Source: Patescibacteria group bacterium UBA2591 (GTDB lineage Bacteria > Patescibacteriota > Patescibacteriia > UBA2591). From it: a stretch of DNA of 32,509 nt. The notes below the pieces were generated by a model, which worked only from the letters and a program-made list of their open reading frames with translations, searched no databases and was not told the origin of the DNA. The DNA lies in NCBI GenBank assembly GCA_002339755.1, contig DDKT01000055.1:1-32509 (forward strand), in the 5' to 3' direction. The position numbers and the translations under genes are program-made. This document shows, piece after piece, positions 1 to 12,046 of this stretch. Each line of letters begins with the position of its first letter. Positions within the stretch are counted from its first letter, which is position 1.

Positions 1-27
1 TCATATCATATGGACCAGTACAAGCCC

Positions 28-56
28 TTGACAAATTTTTTAAGATGTGTTATAAT
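28..56 (+). promoter_or_regulatory. sigma70-type consensus promoter (TTGACA-17-TATAAT, TG-extended -10)
   Basis: TTGACA at 28-33, 17-nt spacer, TATAAT at 51-56, TG at 48-49. Both hexamers match consensus perfectly. Predicted start is near 63. Confidence 0.55.
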
Positions 57-147
57 AAACCTGGGTTGAATGAAATGTTCGGCCCAACAAGTCAACAAAA
101 AATAAAATAAATAAATAGGCTCTTTAAAAAGGGCCAAGGAAAGAAAC

Positions 148-233
148 CAGACGACCCCTCAACGGGGGTCGTTTTTTAACGGGAAAATGGCTCCTCTAGG
201 GGTCGTCTGAAAAGATAGTTCTTTGAAAAATAA
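148..233 (+). repeat. structured module copy 1 (divergent): 11-bp helix plus conserved tail AGTTCTTTGAAAAATAA
   Basis: CAGACGACCCC (148-158) pairs with GGGGTCGTCTG (199-209). Tail AGTTCTTTGAAAAATAA at 217-233 is identical to the tails at 869-885, 1220-1236 and 3198-3214. Confidence 0.5.
152..177 (+). terminator. intrinsic terminator-like hairpin inside module copy 1
   Basis: CGACCCC (152-158) / GGGGTCG (165-171), 6-nt loop, then TTTTTT at 172-177. Confidence 0.5.
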
Positions 234-362
234 ATAAAACTTAAGGTCATGGTGACTACTTTATTTACTAATTTTTTAGCAGGTAGAGTGGTCATCATGA
301 CCGAGGTGACGACGGCCTCAAAAATTTTCGGTCGAGCCATAAAAAAAGAGGAGGTGATTTTT

Positions 363-542
363 ATGTTAACGGAGAGTGGTCAACTCCAAGTGATAATTGG
401 AGTTCTAGCCCTTGCCACAGCAACCCCAGTTGTTCTGAAAAATATCTTTAAAATTAAAAATGGTCTCCTAAGATGGTCATTAATGCTTTTCATCTGGGGC
501 TTGCTTTATTTCTTTGGCAAAGAATACTGTGGAGTATTTTAG
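363..542 (+). CDS. small hydrophobic protein (59 aa, two predicted TM segments), unknown function
   Basis: Internal ATG of ORF 249..542 is preceded by AAAGAGGAGGTGAT 5 nt upstream. The product MLTESGQLQVIIGVLALATATPVV...WSLMLFIWGLLYFF has two hydrophobic stretches. No family recognised. Confidence 0.35.
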   Translation: MLTESGQLQVIIGVLALATATPVVLKNIFKIKNGLLRWSLMLFIWGLLYFFGKEYCGVF

Positions 543-798
543 CCAAAGAGTTTTTAAGAACCCGCCTTCGTGGAGAGAATCGAAGGGGTAAGAGAAATAA
601 GGTTTTTCATCAGTTATAGGTTCAACCTAATGAACCTGCAAAGATGAAAAACACGAATAATCTTAACCAAGTGGTGATGTTGTGAAAAAAAATCTCACGA
701 CTAACCCTGGTGTTCCAACCAAAGCGGGGACCTTGAGGAAAAAAGGGAAAGATGGCTATCCCTATAACTCAAGAGCGACCGTAGGAACATTTAAAAAA

Positions 799-885
799 GG
801 GAAGACAAAATCTTCCCTCCCCATCCCAGCTTAGCAAGCCCTGGTAGGTTGGGATGGGGGGATTAAATAGTTCTTTGAAAAATAA
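799..885 (+). repeat. structured module copy 2 (hairpin 1, hairpin 2, conserved tail)
   Basis: GGGAAGA (799-805) / TCTTCCC (811-817). CCCCATCCCA (819-828) / TGGGATGGGG (850-859). Tail ATTAAATAGTTCTTTGAAAAATAA at 862-885. Confidence 0.6.
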
Positions 886-1134
886 GTAAAAGATAAAGTA
901 AAAAAAGTACTTACTTTGTCACTACTTAGAAAATAAAGTTCTCAGATTGGGATAGCTGTTCGACTACCAAGGAAGGTGGTCCTTCCTCTACGCTATTCTC
1001 CTTGGTTATAGCTTAGACAATTTGTTTTGCAACATTAGCGCTATACTGAGGATTCAAGATCCAACCAAAGTTGCAATCTTGAGTGAATGGTTCAGAGAGA
1101 GGATGAGCTATCTCACTGAGAATTTAAAACCAAA

Positions 1135-1236
1135 GAGGAAAATCAGAAGAGATTCACTGGTTTTCCTCTCCCCACCCTAGTCTGTCAAGCCCTGGTAGGT
1201 TGGGATGGGGGGATTAAATAGTTCTTTGAAAAATAA
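1135..1236 (+). repeat. structured module copy 3
   Basis: GAGGAAAA (1135-1142) / TTTTCCTC (1161-1168). CCCCACCCTA (1170-1179) / TGGGATGGGG (1201-1210) with one mismatch. Tail ATTAAATAGTTCTTTGAAAAATAA at 1213-1236. Confidence 0.6.
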
Positions 1237-1373
1237 AATCCTGCTGGGTTTCGGCGTAGAGTTTCTAAAGAAATTTGGGAATTGTACGCCGAAACTCGGC
1301 TCCTGCAGAGGTGGTCTCCGCAGAAAACTACCCATAAGTCCTCTCTGAAACGAAAGGGAGGCAAGGAGGAAAA

Positions 1374-3038
1374 ATGTTTGAGAAGGGAACTTATGAAGAA
1401 TCTGGCCCTTTTGCGATTTTTATCTACACCAAGAATGGCAATTATGTTAAAAAGAAAATCTACTACACTTCGCTTTCTGATGTAAATGAAGACATCTCCC
1501 GAATAGAAGAAAACGAAATAGGGGATTGGGGAATGATCGAAGTGCGTAAATGTTCGCAACATAAACATTCGTCACAAATTCGCAATTACTATTGCAACTG
1601 GAAAGTGCTCCATACCTACGCTCCCTCGTGGGTTAAGCCATGTTCTCGTTGTGGACGACTCGCGAAAAATTATCTTTATCACCCCGATTGTTATCCACTA
1701 ACTGAAAGAGAAAGTTGGGTTTGCGATGCTGAATATCTTCCTTCAGCGGACTCTCCCCCAATTCCCAGAAAACTTGAGGACCTGAAAACCGACATCCAGA
1801 TCGCACAGGAGATTGGGAAAAAAATTGCTGAGCGTAAACCTGAGATTATTAATGTAACAAGAGATTTTCGAGTTCGGCTAGCCTTGGATCTGAAGGAGAT
1901 TACTGAAAATGCCTGTTGGCTATTCGAAGCAGAAGTGAAGAAAAAAGAGATAAGAGGAGTATCTATCTATCTAGCCGAGAGAGAGAAAGGGTCTTTCGAA
2001 AAGAAATTTTTGGTAGGTGAAAGAGAATGGACGGAGATAGAGAAGTTAAAGACAAAAGAAGATTTAGAGAATTTAAAGAACAATCTAAAAAAAGAAATAG
2101 AAAAACTTGTTCCTCTCCAAGTTTTCTTTTTACCTCTCGAAATTTCATTAATCGAGAGAATCCTTTCTGATAATTCAGTGAAGATTCTTTTTGTCTTCGG
2201 TCATCGCTGGGCTAACAAGGAAATAATAGTTTTCGAAAAAAATCAACAATTATTGGAGTTCTCCTATTCCCTAGAACAAGATGAAGGCGGAAAAAAGAAG
2301 AAAAAATTTTCTCACCTAGAAGCAATTAATGCTCCTTTGTCGAATATCTGTTATTACGAAGAGAGATACGGAATTCGAATAAAAACAAAGATTACCAATA
2401 AAGAATTCATTCAGTATCTTCGAAGCGAAGAATATCTCTCTTCTGGGAAGAAATTCTCTGAACACTTTGAATGGCGCAACTATCATTTCGCAGAATTTGA
2501 AGATGTCACTTTAGAAGTTCTTGAGAGACAAACAAAAGAGACAATTGAAAAAGTTACAGAAAAAATTGACAAATACAAACAGAAAAGGAGTTGGTTTAAC
2601 CATAGCTTTCAATTTGGTATCAACGATAGGGATAGAGGAGAGCGAATTAGAAAAGAAGCGGTGAGAAAACTCATTGAAGTCATCCGAGAGAAAAGGCCCG
2701 ATTGGATTCGATATAGTCCTAATGCTTATGAGCTTCATGGGTCTTTCTTTGTGGATGACGGATCTACGATGGGGGTTCTTCATCCGAACACGCCTGTGGA
2801 GGTCAAGACTGCCCTTACCGTGCTTGATAAAGATGAAATTCTGCTTTGGCTAACGGCACTTCTTGAAGGGAAGGTCTCGCTTTCTGGAGAAACAGTAGGA
2901 CAGTCGTCTTCTAATACCTGTCCTAAGTGTGGAAGTTTCGCCACATCTTTTGCGACTAGGCAAAAGATTTTTTATCGTTGTTCATTTTGCGGTTTCTCTA
3001 CACAGGAAGAAAATCTTGCTTCTTTTCCAACCGATTAA
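1374..3038 (+). CDS. Cys-rich hypothetical protein (554 aa) with C-terminal CxxC...CxxC zinc ribbon; possible very divergent TnpB/Cas12-like C-terminus
   Basis: Long ORF with AAGGAGGA 5 nt upstream of the ATG. N-terminal Cys cluster (CSRCG...HPDC), K/E-rich central coiled-coil-like region. C-terminus is SSSNTCPKCGS...FYRCSFCGFSTQEENLASF. No family identified with certainty. Confidence 0.75.
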   Translation: MFEKGTYEESGPFAIFIYTKNGNYVKKKIYYTSLSDVNEDISRIEENEIGDWGMIEVRKCSQHKHSSQIRNYYCNWKVLHTYAPSWVKPCSRCGRLAKNYLYHPDCYPLTERESWVCDAEYLPSADSPPIPRKLEDLKTDIQIAQEIGKKIAERKPEIINVTRDFRVRLALDLKEITENACWLFEAEVKKKEIRGVSIYLAEREKGSFEKKFLVGEREWTEIEKLKTKEDLENLKNNLKKEIEKLVPLQVFFLPLEISLIERILSDNSVKILFVFGHRWANKEIIVFEKNQQLLEFSYSLEQDEGGKKKKKFSHLEAINAPLSNICYYEERYGIRIKTKITNKEFIQYLRSEEYLSSGKKFSEHFEWRNYHFAEFEDVTLEVLERQTKETIEKVTEKIDKYKQKRSWFNHSFQFGINDRDRGERIRKEAVRKLIEVIREKRPDWIRYSPNAYELHGSFFVDDGSTMGVLHPNTPVEVKTALTVLDKDEILLWLTALLEGKVSLSGETVGQSSSNTCPKCGSFATSFATRQKIFYRCSFCGFSTQEENLASFPTD

Positions 3039-3117
3039 TTTCTTTCCTACCTAAAAGACTAAAAGATTAACGGAGAAAAGCTTTTTGAGAGAATCTTTGC
3101 AAGGATTTTGAGAAAAA

Positions 3118-3214
3118 GGGGAAGATATAAACAAAAAGTCTTCCCCTTCTATCCTAGTCTAACAAGTTTTGGTAGATTAAGATAGAAGAGATTAAAAAGT
3201 TCTTTGAAAAATAA
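3118..3214 (+). repeat. structured module copy 4, 80 nt downstream of the 554-aa ORF
   Basis: GGGGAAGA (3118-3125) / TCTTCCCC (3139-3146). CTTCTATC (3146-3153) / GATAGAAG (3181-3188). Tail ATTAAAAAGTTCTTTGAAAAATAA at 3191-3214. Confidence 0.6.
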
Positions 3215-3447
3215 AAAAGGAAATAATCCATCTCGAGTTTTAAAACAGAGGTGGTTGATATAGAGTGAATTTCTAGATAATCCGATTTCTAAAAAGAATT
3301 CGGTTGAAATAAAAACCTTAAAAAAAGAGATTGTTTACAAAACACGTACCCAAGGGCTGAATTCTTAAAATCTTTTCTTCTGAAAGAAAGGGCGGAATGA
3401 AAAAGAGGAAAAGAAAGAGGCCTTGGATGAAAAAAGGAGGTGAGCTT

Positions 3448-3783
3448 ATGGTAGAAGTATTTACTGATGAGGTAAGCTATAGAAACTCCCTTGAGAGAGC
3501 TATCAAGAGAGTCTGCGGGGAAATGGATGCATATGTTGTCTATGTTGACCTAATAATAAGCCCCTCAGATAACCGAATGGATCATAGGGGACTGGATTTA
3601 GCTCTTGCTCTTCTCGACCCTGCAAAGAAACCCATCATCCTTTACGGGCTTGACGATGAGAGTTATCTATCTTCTGACCCTCGTTTCATCAGCCTAATGG
3701 AAAAGCAAAGAGTGGGTTACATTACAGCTTCTTTCGAGCTCAAGGAATTAAAAGTCCTCTATGAGAAGTTATTGAAAGAATAG
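3448..3783 (+). CDS. stand-alone receiver-like (CheY-fold) domain protein, degenerate
   Basis: Start is placed at the internal ATG preceded by AAAGGAGGTGA (ORF track start 3397). Pattern VEVFTDE ... VVYVDLIISP..MDHRGLDLALAL ... PIILYG ... GYITASF mimics REC beta1/beta3/beta4/beta5. The usual Thr/Ser and Lys positions are not conserved. Confidence 0.5.
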   Translation: MVEVFTDEVSYRNSLERAIKRVCGEMDAYVVYVDLIISPSDNRMDHRGLDLALALLDPAKKPIILYGLDDESYLSSDPRFISLMEKQRVGYITASFELKELKVLYEKLLKE

Positions 3784-3947
3784 ATAGCTCGTTGGCAGAG
3801 AACTGCTTCGGCCCGCATCAGGCCGAGACTCTTAGAGTCAAAAGTCGACCAGGAGAAAGACTATGATGTCCTGCCGTCACCTTATTTTCTCCTATTCCAA
3901 GAAAAAAGTCTAGGAGAAAACCCTTTCTCTGCCAAAAGGGTGACAAA
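3772..3947. repeat. left arm of ~176-bp inverted repeat
   Basis: The reverse complement of 4248-4423 aligns over the whole length. By hand alignment there are 11 substitutions, all transitions, plus two small indels. The arm begins in the last three codons of the receiver-like ORF. Confidence 0.9.
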
Positions 3948-4247: not shown

Positions 4248-4423
4248 CTTTGTCACCTTTTTGGGCAGGGAAAGGGCTTTTTCCTGGACTTTTCTTGGAA
4301 TAGGAGAAAATAAGGTGACAGCAGGACATCATAGTTTTTTTCCTAGTCGACTTTTGACTCTAAGAATCTCGGCCTGATGCGGGCCGAAGCAGTTCTCTGC
4401 CAACGAGCTATCTGTTCTTTCAA
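4248..4423. repeat. right arm of ~176-bp inverted repeat
   Basis: See left arm. The 300-bp AT-rich spacer lies at 3948-4247. Confidence 0.9.
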
Positions 4424-4880
4424 CCCAAATTTGACACTTTTCTGGTAATTTTGGAGAATTTGGAGTAAATGTAAGCAGAGGGGTTAATTAAAATAAAATT
4501 AAAAAAATTGAAAAATCAAACAAAATTAGGATTAAGGTTGAGCACTCTATCTTAAAATGCAAAAGATTCAAGATTTTAAAACAAATTTATTGTCATTCTT
4601 TGAAAAGGCTATTATCAGAGATTTCAAATTATTGGATTAGTGAATTTTAAAATCAAAGAAAGTATTAAACAACTCGAACAATCATTTTTAATAACTCAGA
4701 TTAAACGATCTATTCTGGTAACAATCTAAAGATTCTGGGGCAAGAGGACTTTTTAGCCCCTGATAAAACTATTAAACAACATTTTTAGTAAATGAGATTG
4801 AGGTTAATTAATAAAGATATACTAAATTTCGACCCTTTTTTTCATTTTACCAAATATTTGCTTCACTTACTTTTTAAATC

Positions 4881-5180: not shown

Positions 5181-5634
5181 GTCTGAGTAGATCGGGTAAT
5201 CGCCTTTTATTTTTAGACCAAATTTTTAGGCCAAAATAGCCAAATAACTAAAAATAAAAGGAGGAAAGTCCGAACACCATTTTATGAATAGTCGCTAACA
5301 GCGACCGGGAGCAGTTCTGGAAACTATTTTTAAACTATAAATTGTTTTTAAAATAGGATCAGAGCGAAACCTAGGGAAAGTGCCACAGAGACCATACTAA
5401 CTTATAGTTCTATAAAGTAAAAGGTGAAAAGTGAAAGGGTGTTCTTTTTTGGAAAATTTTAAAAGAGCTACTTTTCTCTCTGATAAGGTGACTTATCAGA
5501 GTGGTAAACCCTATTCGGTGAAAGGCCAAATTTTGGTGGGCCGTTTGAGCTTGATAGCAATATCAAGCCTAGATAGATGATTACCTAGGGTAGAAAATAC
5601 CTGAACAGAATTCGGCTTATAGATCTGCTTAGAC
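5181..5634 (+). ncRNA. rnpB: RNase P RNA, bacterial type A
   Basis: GGAGGAAAGTCCGAACAC (P4 5' strand) at ~5261-5278, AGGGAAAGTGCCACAGAGA, GGTGAAAGGGTG-like GTGAAAAGTGAAAGGGTG, GGTAAACCC, GGCCAAAT, and ACAGAATTCGGCTTAT near the 3' end. P1 is GTCTGAGTAGATC (5181-5193) / GATCTGCTTAGAC (5622-5634). P2 is GGTAATC / GATTACC. Confidence 0.9.
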
Positions 5635-5657
5635 AACTCAATATCATCATCAAAATT

Positions 5658-9928: not shown

Positions 9929-10020
9929 AAGGATAGATAAATTTAAGGTTATAGATCTTTAAAAATTAAAAATGGAAAAACAAGACGAGCCTTAAGCTAC
10001 TCCACATGAATCAAGAAGTT

Positions 10021-10068
10021 TTTTATTCAACCATCTCTTAATTTAACAAAGTGGTTTAGGACTCGTCT
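10021..10068 (+). repeat. conserved leader motif copy (TTTTATTcAACCATCTCTTAATTTAACAAAGTGGTTTAGGaCTCGT)
   Basis: Near-identical to 11109-11165. Contains hairpin AACCAT/GTGGTT. Lies ~50 nt upstream of ORF 10115. Confidence 0.6.
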
Positions 10069-10114
10069 TGTTAAGACGAGTAGAAAAATAAGAAAGAAAA
10101 AGGGGGTAAAAAAA

Positions 10115-11005
10115 ATGATGGAACCTAGAACAGATAATCGCGGACAATTGATTCCTAACTCTCTGAGGGGGTTAGATGATCCCTCGCTGGAAACTTGGCT
10201 TCAGGCCCACCTTAAGGGAGAAAATCTGAGTATCACTGGTGATGTTTACTCTTATGGACGACCGTCTTATCTCATTACTGAGATCTTTAACGAAATCGAT
10301 TCTGATACACGTGAGAGAATCAGGCAGATTATACTTAAATCTCTGAAGCAAGTCAGGGATGGTGAAGGTAAATGGAGTGATGAGGCAGTTATGGAACTAC
10401 TTCTTTTAGTTGAAACCTACTTTCCAAAAACTCAATACAGAGATACTGTTATTGGGTTACTGAAACAGTTGTATGAACGGTGGGTAAAAGAAGGTAATCT
10501 GGAACTTCAGCGGCGCGTGCTTCAAGAACTCCTTGGCCTTGAATATCAAGCTTCTGATCCAGATTTTTGGTATAAGGTAGCTAATTCTGAGGACCTATTT
10601 GGTTTAGCCCTGTATGGTCTCTGGCTGCAGAAGCGGGGGTGGGCCAAAGTTCTGGAATTTCTACCATCTATGCCCAACTCAGAACTTGCTTTTAGCCAGG
10701 TTATATCTACCCTTAACTTTATCCTTGAGCGTTCGCCCGAACCCAAGTTAGAGGCTAAGCGATTGAAGCAATCGAGATTGAAGCAATTGAGAGAGCTTGC
10801 TTTCAGGAGCAACAAAAAATGGGTAAAAGATGTTATCAACCATGTTCTTGATCTTCATGGGTTGAAGGGACTAACCTCTGTGGAAGAAAAAATACAAGCA
10901 TTTCCAGCCATTGGGGCTCTTAGCAAAAAAAGAAGAAAGGGAATAATGGAATTCCTATCAGCCCAGAAAAAAGAACCAAGACCGCTTAGAATTGGAAACA
11001 ACTAA
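10115..11005 (+). CDS. hypothetical protein (296 aa, predicted all-alpha)
   Basis: Long ORF with AGGGGG 8 nt upstream. Visibly higher G+C than neighbouring genes. No recognisable motif. Confidence 0.6.
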   Translation: MMEPRTDNRGQLIPNSLRGLDDPSLETWLQAHLKGENLSITGDVYSYGRPSYLITEIFNEIDSDTRERIRQIILKSLKQVRDGEGKWSDEAVMELLLLVETYFPKTQYRDTVIGLLKQLYERWVKEGNLELQRRVLQELLGLEYQASDPDFWYKVANSEDLFGLALYGLWLQKRGWAKVLEFLPSMPNSELAFSQVISTLNFILERSPEPKLEAKRLKQSRLKQLRELAFRSNKKWVKDVINHVLDLHGLKGLTSVEEKIQAFPAIGALSKKRRKGIMEFLSAQKKEPRPLRIGNN

Positions 11006-11108
11006 AGGGGGTCGCTGTTGAAAGCGACAAAGAATGGTTAAGATAGGCATAAGATTGATCAGAATTCAAGGAGGATGAAGTTATCTCTTTTTGAATGGCT
11101 TCATCTTC

Positions 11109-11165
11109 TTTTATTTAACCATCTCTTAATTTAACAATTTAACAAAGTGGTTTAGGGCTCGTGTT
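11109..11165 (+). repeat. conserved leader motif copy with internal 8-nt duplication (ATTTAACA x2)
   Basis: TTTTATTTAACCATCTCTTAATTTAACAATTTAACAAAGTGGTTTAGGGCTCGT, ~75 nt upstream of ORF 11237. Confidence 0.6.
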
Positions 11166-11236
11166 AAAAAAGAGTAAAGCTCCCAACCGCCCCACGGGGC
11201 GGGGCTTTAAAAACAATCAAAAGGAGGTATCAAAGG

Positions 11237-12046
11237 ATGAATAAGGATAATAATTGGATAGAGCTTAAAGATAAAGCAAATATATGTTTTGTTACCGTGT
11301 ATAATCATGGCGAGAGATATGTCATTGATGTAACCGGTTTTCCAATGGAAGATTATGAAATTTTAGAAAAGGCCACCTATATTTGTACTTTACTTTTTAA
11401 AGGAGAGACAATTTTAAAGGTAGGTGAGAGATTAAGAAAAGAGTTGAATGAATTGACTAAAAAAACAGGAGAATTTTATGATTTTTTCTCTGTTTGCTCT
11501 TTAAACCTGAAACTATTTGAAAAAATATTTAAATATGAGCTCAATATAACGGCGTATAATAACATTCCTGGCTATGCAAAGGTATTAGTGGATCTTGTCT
11601 CAAAAGATGCTGTGGTTGGATATTTTTTGCCAAGAGATCCAATAACAAGAGAGTTTATTGAATTCGAAAAACAGAGTATTTGTCTCAGCAAACTGCGAGT
11701 CGAGACAAATTTAAAGAAAATAGCTATGGAATTTATGCCAAGGATAATGGGAAGCAACGTTTTATTAAGAGAGGTAGCTCCTAATAAGCTCGTATTTAAA
11801 AATGAAAGCTTGGGTCCTGGTATTATGCGGCAGATAGCGGAGGATATTAAGATTACTATTCTTAACGCTAGAAAGGCATTAAAAAAGCGATTTAATTTTG
11901 AGAGCGCTGAAAATCTACCAGAAATAGAGGGGTTTAAAGAACCATTTTCGGGTGATTTTACGCTTTCTTGTCCAGAAATGACTATAACAACCTCCTTTAG
12001 CTACAAATTCATTGAAATGAATTTTAAAGAGGGAGGGAAAAAGTAA
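11237..12046 (+). CDS. hypothetical protein (269 aa)
   Basis: Long ORF with AAGGAGGT 9 nt upstream. No recognisable motif. Confidence 0.6.
   Translation: MNKDNNWIELKDKANICFVTVYNHGERYVIDVTGFPMEDYEILEKATYICTLLFKGETILKVGERLRKELNELTKKTGEFYDFFSVCSLNLKLFEKIFKYELNITAYNNIPGYAKVLVDLVSKDAVVGYFLPRDPITREFIEFEKQSICLSKLRVETNLKKIAMEFMPRIMGSNVLLREVAPNKLVFKNESLGPGIMRQIAEDIKITILNARKALKKRFNFESAENLPEIEGFKEPFSGDFTLSCPEMTITTSFSYKFIEMNFKEGGKK

Follow-up and report, generated by a model that had tools for sequence, protein, structure and literature searches.

TldR proteins preserve the fold of TnpB together with a guide RNA and have typically lost a zinc finger (ZnF)/RuvC segment at their C terminus (bioRxiv 10.1101/2023.11.30.569447). 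A gene at positions 1374-3038 of contig DDKT01000055.1, of which we analyzed a stretch of 32,509 nucleotides (nt; hereafter the window), had been read in an initial annotation as encoding a nuclease-impaired, TldR-type relative of TnpB that lies beside its own structured RNA unit. Were this so, its 554-amino-acid (aa) product and the TldRs would both be non-nuclease TnpB relatives, located outside transposons and beside structured noncoding sequence. We found the opposite pattern, however: the protein family to which this gene belongs has at most the C-terminal segment that TldRs lose, and no guide-like RNA is evident. As judged from its sequence and from a structural model, the 554-aa protein is not a TnpB, a Cas12, or a TldR. 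We lean, with a confidence a little beyond even, toward a different reading, in which it belongs to a tiny zinc-ribbon family, is carried here in an acquired, module-bearing gene cluster, and serves as a nucleic-acid-binding accessory or regulatory protein.

The open reading frame (ORF) is a genuine gene, given its length, its strong Shine-Dalgarno sequence (GGAGGCAAGGAGGAAAAATG; the stretch preceding the ATG reads GGAGGCAAGGAGGAAAA), and the occurrence of the identical protein on independent assemblies, namely NCBI contig DZAI01000151.1 (metagenome-assembled genome GCA_022729515.1), Joint Genome Institute (JGI) data, and a Logan contig from another run. The long frame is embedded in DNA of 37-42% G+C and lies 1.5 kb from the contig end. 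When we rechecked the sequence, the ORF, its C-terminal string, the GIRIK string, and six N-terminal cysteines were all where the initial annotation had placed them. The gene and its parts, in window coordinates, are as follows.

1374..3038, + strand: 554-aa ORF with an ATG start, a real protein-coding gene
1374..2183, + strand: N-terminal region (aa 1-270), unique, without a relative, family match, or usable model
2184..2645, + strand: mid-domain (aa 271-424), which holds GIRIK and is defined by alignment to few relatives
2646..3038, + strand: family-defining C-terminal domain (aa 425-554), from the family alignment and the AlphaFold model
2913..2996, + strand: C4 zinc ribbon (aa 514-541) formed by C516, C519, C536, and C539, with a 16-residue spacer

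Within the protein, GIRIK occupies residues 333-337, EAVRKLIEVIREK residues 428-440, AYELHG 451-456, LLWLTALLEGK 490-500, NTCPKCGS 514-521, FYRCSFCGF 533-541, and EENLASF 545-551, and cysteines stand at positions 60, 74, 90, 93, 106, 117, 181, 326, 516, 519, 536, and 539. The N-terminal ~330 aa had been described as unlike anything that could be named, and in phmmer searches aa 1-270, including Cys 60/74/90/93/106/117, indeed found no relatives.

An exhaustive phmmer search of 1.84 billion representative sequences (threshold E<=0.001) yielded 10 relatives of the 554-aa protein (P0002 to P0011), which are 158-304 aa long. The resulting family comprises 11 clusters at 50% identity, all but one of which are singleton clusters at 90%, and its members are unnamed. 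Matches begin at aa 271 in two relatives (P0002 and P0003) and at aa ~385-460 in the other eight; the mid-domain is common only to P0002 and P0003, with patches in P0008, P0010, and P0011. N-terminal regions vary even among family members, and complete genes can encode as few as 158-216 aa (for example, at the homologous loci L008 and L009). A word-index search with the C-terminal alignment recovered five family members, while such searches with the full protein or the full-length alignment returned the query alone, low-complexity Lys/Glu words having probably swamped the candidates. We saw no family relatives in IMG/VR by a family profile scan, in phages by tblastn (aa 265-554, no match at all), or in plasmid collections, and blastn of the 4.4-kb island against phages and plasmids returned nothing. 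We conclude from these searches that the family is very small and unannotated, with sharp conservation only over its last ~125 residues.

This conserved C-terminal domain is ordered as an alpha-helix, W444, a beta-strand ending in D461-D462, an H470-P-x-T-P-x-E476 loop, two helices, and the C4 ribbon. The family consensus reads ...P.WI...G.F..DDGCT.GV.HP.TP.E...L...L.GK..LSG.KVGQS.ENTCP.CG.FL.SGATR...Y.C..C.Y....E, and its invariant or near-invariant columns are W444, D461, D462, H470, P471, P474, and the four ribbon cysteines. The ribbon spacer measures 16 residues in eight of the 10 members, and after the ribbon comes an acidic residue (E545/E546 in the 554-aa protein), with the C terminus reached almost at once. 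A Glu or Asp stands 6-7 residues beyond the last Cys in 9/10 members, the protein ending 1-8 residues later, and three members keep an E-[ED]-N-L-[AT] tail. AlphaFold run on the single full-length sequence gave an unusable model (predicted local distance difference test [pLDDT] of 38.6), whereas aa 265-554 with an 11-row alignment were modeled at a pLDDT of 80.2 and a predicted template modeling score of 0.74. In this model the conserved acidic/His block forms confidently modeled loops (pLDDT 84-87), and the ribbon has the two CxxC knuckles and three strands (model residues 258-282) of an RPB9/TFIIS/S27ae-type C4 ribbon. One member departs from this plan: P0003 (locus L087, 96-839) comes to a natural end short of the zinc ribbon, its motif is degenerate (DNG...FDPNLP), and it appears to be a decayed or decaying member. 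The gene downstream of it encodes an unrelated 545-aa acidic protein.

The likeness to the TNB ribbon of TnpB and Cas12f extends to the C4 pattern CPxCG...(16)...YxCxxCGY, a preceding amphipathic helix plus strand, and the acidic residue 6-7 positions after the last Cys. The initial annotation had read the C terminus as a TnpB ribbon, and the order and spacing of helix and TNB ribbon over the last ~55-100 residues do agree with this, but other ribbons score comparably. Of the two Pfam models that it named, neither gave an above-threshold match. PF07282 (Cas12f1-like TNB; formerly OrfB_Zn_ribbon) matched aa 511-544 only, at 16.1 bits (E = 0.013) against a cutoff of 26.3 bits, and the RuvC-bearing model PF01385 matched none of the 11 members. 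PF07282 matched four of the 11 (best E 0.0064), whereas the RPB9-type ribbon PF02150 matched six (best E 8e-5). In an NCBIfam scan the 554-aa protein preferred the archaeal TFS4 ribbon (E = 7e-4, sub-threshold), and in a PADLOC scan the Cas12f model matched at E = 0.025, likewise sub-threshold and on the ribbon only. Against the PDB, phmmer with the 554-aa protein found RpoM-2 (7oqy_Y, E = 7e-5), and the family profile found the same chain at E = 2.5e-6 and eS31 at E = 3.3e-4. Family profiles ranked RpoM-2, TFIIS, eS31, RPA12, RPC10, S27ae, SPT4, and L37ae before TnpB/Cas12f, whose solved chains appeared at E~1.8 or were absent. The RPB9, TFIIS, TFS4 (RpoM-2), S27ae/eS31, and L37ae proteins, which give the best PDB and Pfam matches, share with the family the three-stranded C4 ribbon and have a comparable spacer. 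Unlike them, the family lacks the acidic hairpin (DE) loop of TFIIS, shows no homology outside the ribbon, is bacterial (probably from a host of the candidate phyla radiation [CPR] type), and sits in mobile islands rather than in the core transcription or translation machinery.

When aa 265-554 were compared by tblastn with 7.3 Gb of plasmids, only three matches resulted, all annotated as TnpB (aa 462-551, E = 0.6-0.8). We therefore assembled the clade of these plasmid TnpBs, a Lactobacillus/Bifidobacterium/phage group, from 71 IMG/VR relatives reduced to 21 nonredundant sequences. Its ribbon spacer is also 16 residues long, its RuvC-III "DD" lies 6-7 residues past the last Cys, and at least 21 more residues follow. 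We compared family and clade with hhalign, using as a control a reversed family profile that retains the CxxC...CxxC pattern.

Family C-terminal profile (A3): score 51.5, P = 3.8e-7, 92.9% probability, 53 columns
Ribbon alone: score 45.4, P = 1.2e-7, 34 columns
Pre-ribbon part alone: score 11.6, P = 0.52, 33 columns
Reversed family profile: score 28.3, P = 2e-3, 26 columns
Longer profile A4: score 56.0, P = 3.7e-7, 104 columns

Because the family profile scored 51.5 (P = 3.8e-7) and its reversed counterpart 28.3 (P = 2e-3), the likeness of the ribbon segment to TnpB exceeds chance in these comparisons; the likenesses proposed for RuvC-I (GIRIK) and RuvC-II do not. The proposal that EAVRKLIEVIREK...AYELHG is a RuvC-II helix plus Glu finds no support in the pre-ribbon result (P = 0.52), and alternative alignments of the mid-domain with the clade reached P = 0.7. 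At the level of sequence profiles, then, the ribbon similarity is real and directional, yet not TnpB specific.

The other parts of a TnpB are missing. GIRIK had been offered as a RuvC-I motif, but its region is missing in 5/10 relatives, the five that align there have E, E, E, P, or R in the central position, and we detected no similarity to TnpB there. The D-E-D triad of TnpB was not found, the RuvC-I position being Arg in the 554-aa protein and E, E, E, P, or part of a missing region in the homologues. The acidic residue assigned to RuvC-III fared better, being Glu or Asp in nine of 10 members, but the RuvC-III helix that should carry on from it is missing. Nor did we find the guide-holding WED and REC domains: N termini are unconserved, and the reciprocal TnpB hidden Markov model (HMM) matches the family on the ribbon only, at 5-20 bits. 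Complete members of 158-216 aa leave no room for WED, REC, and RuvC. A Foldseek search with the aa 265-554 model against 350,542 PDB chains and BFVD returned nothing at E<=0.001. The best matches (E 0.07-0.1) spanned 55-80 columns of small immunity proteins or uncharacterized phage proteins, the RPB9 ribbon came at rank 48, and the top 50 contained nothing of the RuvC, RNase H, TnpB, Cas12, or Fanzor type. A RuvC fold is thus absent from the confident model, an outcome that the initial annotation had itself named as counting against its reading. In TnpB, moreover, the ribbon is an insertion inside the RuvC domain, whereas this family is without RuvC fold, RuvC-I, or RuvC-III helix. It is because the RuvC fold, RuvC-I, WED/REC, and the RuvC-III helix are all lacking that we set the TnpB identification aside. 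No TnpA or other transposase was seen in the 32.5-kb window, where the upstream DNA is cut by the contig end, and the transposon ends, tnpA, and multicopy spread typical of TnpB were not found for the family.

We give hardly any credence to a full-length, nuclease-impaired, TldR-like RNA-guided protein with the 3040-3216 unit as its guide RNA. The ribbon similarity, the structured unit directly 3' of the ORF, and a similar hairpin 3' of the homologue at locus L011 speak in its favor. Against them stand the confident model without a RuvC fold, the silence of PF01385 (0/11 members), members down to 158 aa whose N termini and GIRIK are unconserved, and the fact that TldRs lose the ZnF yet keep the rest of the fold. 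The properties of the noncoding unit, described below, point the same way.

A more restricted form of TnpB descent deserves closer weighing, although we consider it doubtful. The C-terminal domain may descend from the C-terminal half of the TnpB RuvC domain (RuvC-II strand, next helix, TNB ribbon, and the acidic residue of RuvC-III) and, separated from WED, REC, and RuvC-I, may persist by itself as a module for binding nucleic acid (or as a minimal metal-binding one), joined to new N-terminal partners. The A4 alignment is consistent with this, since its 104 columns are collinear (92.9% probability); in it the RuvC-II strand FVLED lies opposite FFvDD (posterior ~0.7-0.8) and the W of RENRWM opposite W444. 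Some clade members score 27-31 bits with the family HMM, in alignments that extend back as far as the DDG motif, above fragments of eS31 (22 bits) and RpoM-2 (18 bits), and the sole plasmid matches are TnpBs. Both groups have the 16-residue spacer, the acidic residue at +6/+7 after the last Cys falls where the clade has DD, and the E-[ED]-N-L-[AT] tail resembles DDR[IL][AG]A. However, nothing outside the ribbon is significant alone, and HMMER and hhalign disagree on the register of the RuvC-II strand. HMMER pairs DxxTMxVL-H with DRDTMFVL-E at low posterior, placing the catalytic position at H470 where hhalign places it at DD. The clade was also chosen as the best of a huge family, which raises a multiple-testing problem, and its database E values were only 0.6-0.8. 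In Pfam and the PDB the ribbons of RPB9, TFIIS, and S27ae reach equal or better scores, Foldseek gave no local match to TnpB, Cas12, or Fanzor, and the family has its own 11-residue insertion with an invariant HPxTPxE that has no counterpart in TnpB.

The initial annotation had also assigned the gene its own structured RNA unit. A structured noncoding unit does adjoin the gene, but the same module occurs in four copies, and unrelated ORFs too are preceded by it. All four lie on the + strand of the first 3.2 kb of the window and end at positions 235, 887, 1238, and 3216.

148..235, + strand: module copy A, with a terminator-like hairpin, an alternative long-range pairing, and the tail GAAAAGATAGTTCTTTGAAAAATAA (z = -7.5), directly upstream of a 97-aa ORF
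783..887, + strand: module copy B, with a closing helix, hairpins at 799-817 (GGGAAGA...TCTTCCC) and 819-859, and the tail GATTAAATAGTTCTTTGAAAAATAA (z = -4.6)
1117..1238, + strand: module copy C, with 91% identity to B over 69 nt; the 554-aa ORF follows after 135 nt
3079..3216, + strand: module copy D, within the unit of the initial annotation, with the architecture of B and C and a GGGAAGA...TCTTCCC hairpin at 3119-3145 (z = -4.3)

All four copies contain the 17-mer AGTTCTTTGAAAAATAA exactly, and the window has no further occurrence of it (+ strand only, within 1-3216). Copy D begins ~40 nt past the stop codon of the 554-aa ORF. What follows the modules differs in each case: the 97-aa ORF after A, a 330-nt ORF-less stretch after B, the 554-aa ORF after C, and a 111-aa ORF after D. 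In B, C, and D a closing helix surrounds two hairpins, the second of which is longer (loop ...CAAG...TGGTAG), and an A-rich single-stranded tail follows. Fold z-scores run from -2.1 to -4.6 for these three copies. In the long hairpin 94.9% of cells pair, compared with 19-46% when the partners are slid, and the second hairpin of D differs from that of B and C through pairing-preserving changes. Two of its pairs read C-G in B, U-G in C, and U-A in D, a series that favors pairing at the RNA level, on the + strand. Rfam held no match to the modules, and permissive thresholds applied to the island and the L011 repeats gave noise only; a scan of GTDB genomes and JGI metagenomes with the 25-nt module tail, collections that evidently lack the source genome, found three unrelated matches only. 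Since the module is repeated four times and also stands before unrelated ORFs, it is not a private ωRNA; from its arrangement, we interpret it as part of a small transcription unit, serving there as an intercistronic or leader element. The idea of a TldR-like guide RNA is further weakened by the gene-free stretch behind one copy and by the lack of any variable guide-like 3' segment; after the L011 repeat described below come only a Shine-Dalgarno sequence and ATG.

Repeated hairpin units between small genes also recall integrons, and we asked whether the modules could be attC-like recombination sites, the genes mobile cassettes, and the 554-aa protein cargo. We judge this very improbable. Small same-orientation ORFs of unknown function are indeed parted by imperfect hairpin units of ~100-125 nt, each having extrahelical bases and a helix that closes it; breaks in the assemblies fall at module boundaries, and direct repeats flank the L011 family gene. 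By eye, however, the R''/R' core sites (RYYYAAC / GTTRRRY) were not present, GTTCTTT and its partners being a misfit and absent at locus L007, and conservation runs 13 nt past the would-be crossover point. The G-U wobble intermediates favor + strand RNA pairing, no integrase is visible (the contig ends 1.5 kb upstream), and at L010, L013, and L088 the leader motif described below lies downstream of normal promoters.

The modules and genes of the first ~4 kb stand apart from the rest of the window. The following features frame them.

28..56, + strand: sigma-70-type promoter-like site, TTGACA-17-TATAAT with TG (extended -10), 12/12 matches
249..542, + strand: 97-aa ORF without a family match, its product hydrophobic and probably a membrane protein
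3448..3783, + strand: 111-aa ORF with a strong Shine-Dalgarno sequence (alternative 128-aa start at 3397), no family match
5184-5635, + strand: RNase P RNA class A (RF00010), Rfam 187.9 bits, immediately right of the acquired-looking stretch

G+C content is 0.39-0.42 in the first ~4 kb, compared with ~0.32 in the host, and genes there have strong GGAGG Shine-Dalgarno sequences while most host genes (5658-32201) have none. This ~4-kb contig-end stretch looks horizontally acquired because of its higher G+C, its Shine-Dalgarno genes in a mostly Shine-Dalgarno-less host, and its own promoter. That promoter is likely the start of a rightward transcription unit carrying the island genes, and similar promoter and leader layouts precede the homologues at L010, L013, and L088. 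The RNase P RNA gene (rnpB) may mark the island border or integration site.

The homologues lie on short contigs packed with small unknown genes, and several have leader elements reminiscent of those in the window. A C-N-TTGAAAA motif occurs within ~150 nt upstream of the family gene at L007, L009, L011, L013, and L088, with variants at L010 and L087. At L010, L013, and L088 it follows canonical promoters and is therefore in the 5' leader. At L007 a three-way junction (two hairpins closed by a helix) and then AGCTCTTTGAAAATTAAA are found just upstream of the family gene. On L011, a 30-kb JGI contig, the family gene lies between 178-nt direct repeats that are 97% identical (10000-10177 and 10735-10912). 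A GGGAAG...CTTCCC hairpin precedes the start of each repeat, which runs as far as the Shine-Dalgarno sequence of the following ORF, and in a third, diverged copy (11285-11370) one hairpin differs in sequence but still pairs. Among 88 loci, hairpins of the form GGGAAG-N(3-25)-CTTCCC occurred only in the window (799-817 and 3119-3145) and on L011 (10723 and 11287), with a chance expectation of 0.05 per 32 kb. The expectation that homologues would carry the same module was thus borne out in part: related hairpin or motif units flank the gene at L011 and L007, but L006, L008, and L012 are without the motif.

Two other interpretations of this motif were rejected. As a TTG-initiated leader peptide it has inconsistent frames and lengths, the stop overlapping the main ATG in two cases, the ORF being in frame with that ATG in three, and the rest being unrelated. 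As a sigma-70 -35 box (TTGAAA) it has no -10 element at the right spacing, and at L009, L013, and L088 only ~20-25 nt separate it from the start codon, canonical promoters lying upstream of it. The TTG-AAA of the motif could nevertheless start mini-ORFs in the window, at 223-237, 875-889, 1226-1348, and 3204-3263 (MKNK* twice, 40 aa, and 19 aa), and at L007 and L011 the mini-ORF stop overlaps the main ATG (ATGA). L011 also carries an ABC-transporter operon, upstream of which, at 4445-4588, a 14-nt sequence (TTTCATGTTTCATG-like) is tandemly repeated.

The neighbors of the family gene include defense-related functions at three loci. A gene for Csx3, a Crn3-type ring nuclease, adjoins it upstream at L007 (530-775, PADLOC 8e-33) and downstream at L088 (803-1099, PADLOC 2.3e-6); one Csx3 protein matches the other at 2e-7. 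These stand-alone neighbors suggest a link to type III CRISPR cyclic-oligoadenylate signaling or to anti-CRISPR islands. L011 is a defense island, with GmrSD, AAA_14/DUF4143, PDDEXK, a reverse transcriptase, a TnsA-like endonuclease, a helicase, and a methyltransferase.

Taken with the zinc ribbon, these contexts underlie the role that we marginally favor for the protein. The ribbon-containing domain would bind nucleic acid, and the protein would be an accessory or regulatory factor of cassette-like islands, possibly acting on the conserved leader elements before its own gene and its neighbors, somewhat as Aca-type regulators govern variable anti-defense operons. The Csx3 neighbors at two loci and the defense island at a third would fit a defense or anti-defense role. 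The comparison with Aca proteins is a functional analogy only: in both cases a conserved small gene would mark variable clusters, a cis element lies upstream, and the Csx3 neighbors recall the same setting, but Aca proteins are helix-turn-helix repressors that bind promoter inverted repeats, whereas here we have a zinc ribbon and a hairpin/A-rich leader.

Several observations weigh against this reading. The proposed function rests on context and on generic zinc-ribbon properties, and the homologous contigs are mostly 1-3 kb, making context statistics thin. There is no conserved downstream partner, neighbors being mutually unrelated except for the two Csx3 genes (the window's 111-aa ORF, for example, is not homologous to genes downstream of other family members); at L010 the family gene lies beside nusA in an ordinary chromosomal setting, and the leader motif is absent near the family gene at the three loci named above. 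With three informative copies, 231/500 shuffles reached the covariation value observed in the modules. A TnpB origin of the domain would also count against it, although such an origin is compatible with either a regulator or an enzyme. Finally, the conserved DD...H...E could instead form a catalytic metal site.

This last point leads to a serious alternative, though unlikely in our view, in which the protein is a small metal-dependent nuclease or phosphoesterase acting as a toxin or defense effector. Its active site would consist of D461/D462, H470, E476, and the post-ribbon Glu (E546), the ribbon would hold the substrate, and the variable N termini would sense or target. The placement of the conserved acidic/His residues in confident loops, the layout of a variable N terminus with a conserved C terminus, the L011 defense island and adjoining Csx3 genes, and top, though weak, Foldseek matches that include toxin-immunity complexes all accord with an enzyme. 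On the other hand, we found no similarity to a known nuclease or hydrolase fold or family in Pfam, the PDB, PADLOC, or Foldseek, and no conserved immunity or antitoxin partner gene, and the DD motif varies in P0009 and P0003. A combined proposal, which we regard as rather improbable, holds that the protein is an exapted TnpB RuvC fragment that recognizes the hairpin/'CTTTGAAAA' leaders flanking its own gene and co-regulates small defense or anti-defense cassettes, such as Csx3, in CPR-type mobile islands.

The remainder of the window is ordinary chromosome, with genes for a sugar transferase, a glycosyltransferase, RNase III, SMC, PilM, a GatA-type amidase, and ClpB. Strong GGAGG Shine-Dalgarno sequences recur there at the genes at 10115, 11237, and 19251 (- strand). 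The region 10115-12046 holds ORFs of 296 and 269 aa with strong Shine-Dalgarno sequences, no Pfam match, a G+C content of 0.41, and near-identical upstream strings, atttaacaaagtggtttagg[a/g]ctcgt; a second foreign insertion is one possibility, a duplicated cassette another. Within the island, 543-1241 comprises two units of ~350 nt, one ending in module B and the other in module C, without a convincing ORF in either. Apart from the module, a patch of 26 nt, TCCAACCAAAG...CTTGAG, is all that they have in common, and they may be noncoding RNAs or decayed cassettes. Farther right lies an inverted repeat of 134 nt (3772-3905 and 4290-4423; 96% complementary) with 384 nt of AT-rich sequence between its arms. 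The stop codon of the 111-aa ORF marks the beginning of the left arm, inside which Logan contig L002 breaks. Single arms fold weakly better than shuffles (z = -1.5 and -2.4), and the repeat could be an element like a miniature inverted-repeat transposable element or insertion sequence, or duplicated convergent 3' ends.

Had the TnpB idea been true, the gene would have provided a new nuclease-dead RNA-guided protein, and its failure removes a false lead. What remains is an unannotated microfamily with a conserved 125-residue zinc-ribbon domain, cassette-like and defense contexts, and a conserved structured intergenic element. If the hints of TnpB ancestry (FFVDD/FVLED and the acidic residue at the RuvC-III offset) are genuine, they would represent a second way of recycling TnpB pieces, and an exapted fragment, if true, would mean that TnpB had been domesticated by a new route, converse to that of TldR. 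The repeated hairpin module, for its part, may be an undescribed cis-regulatory or RNA-processing element of the mobile islands of small-genome bacteria.

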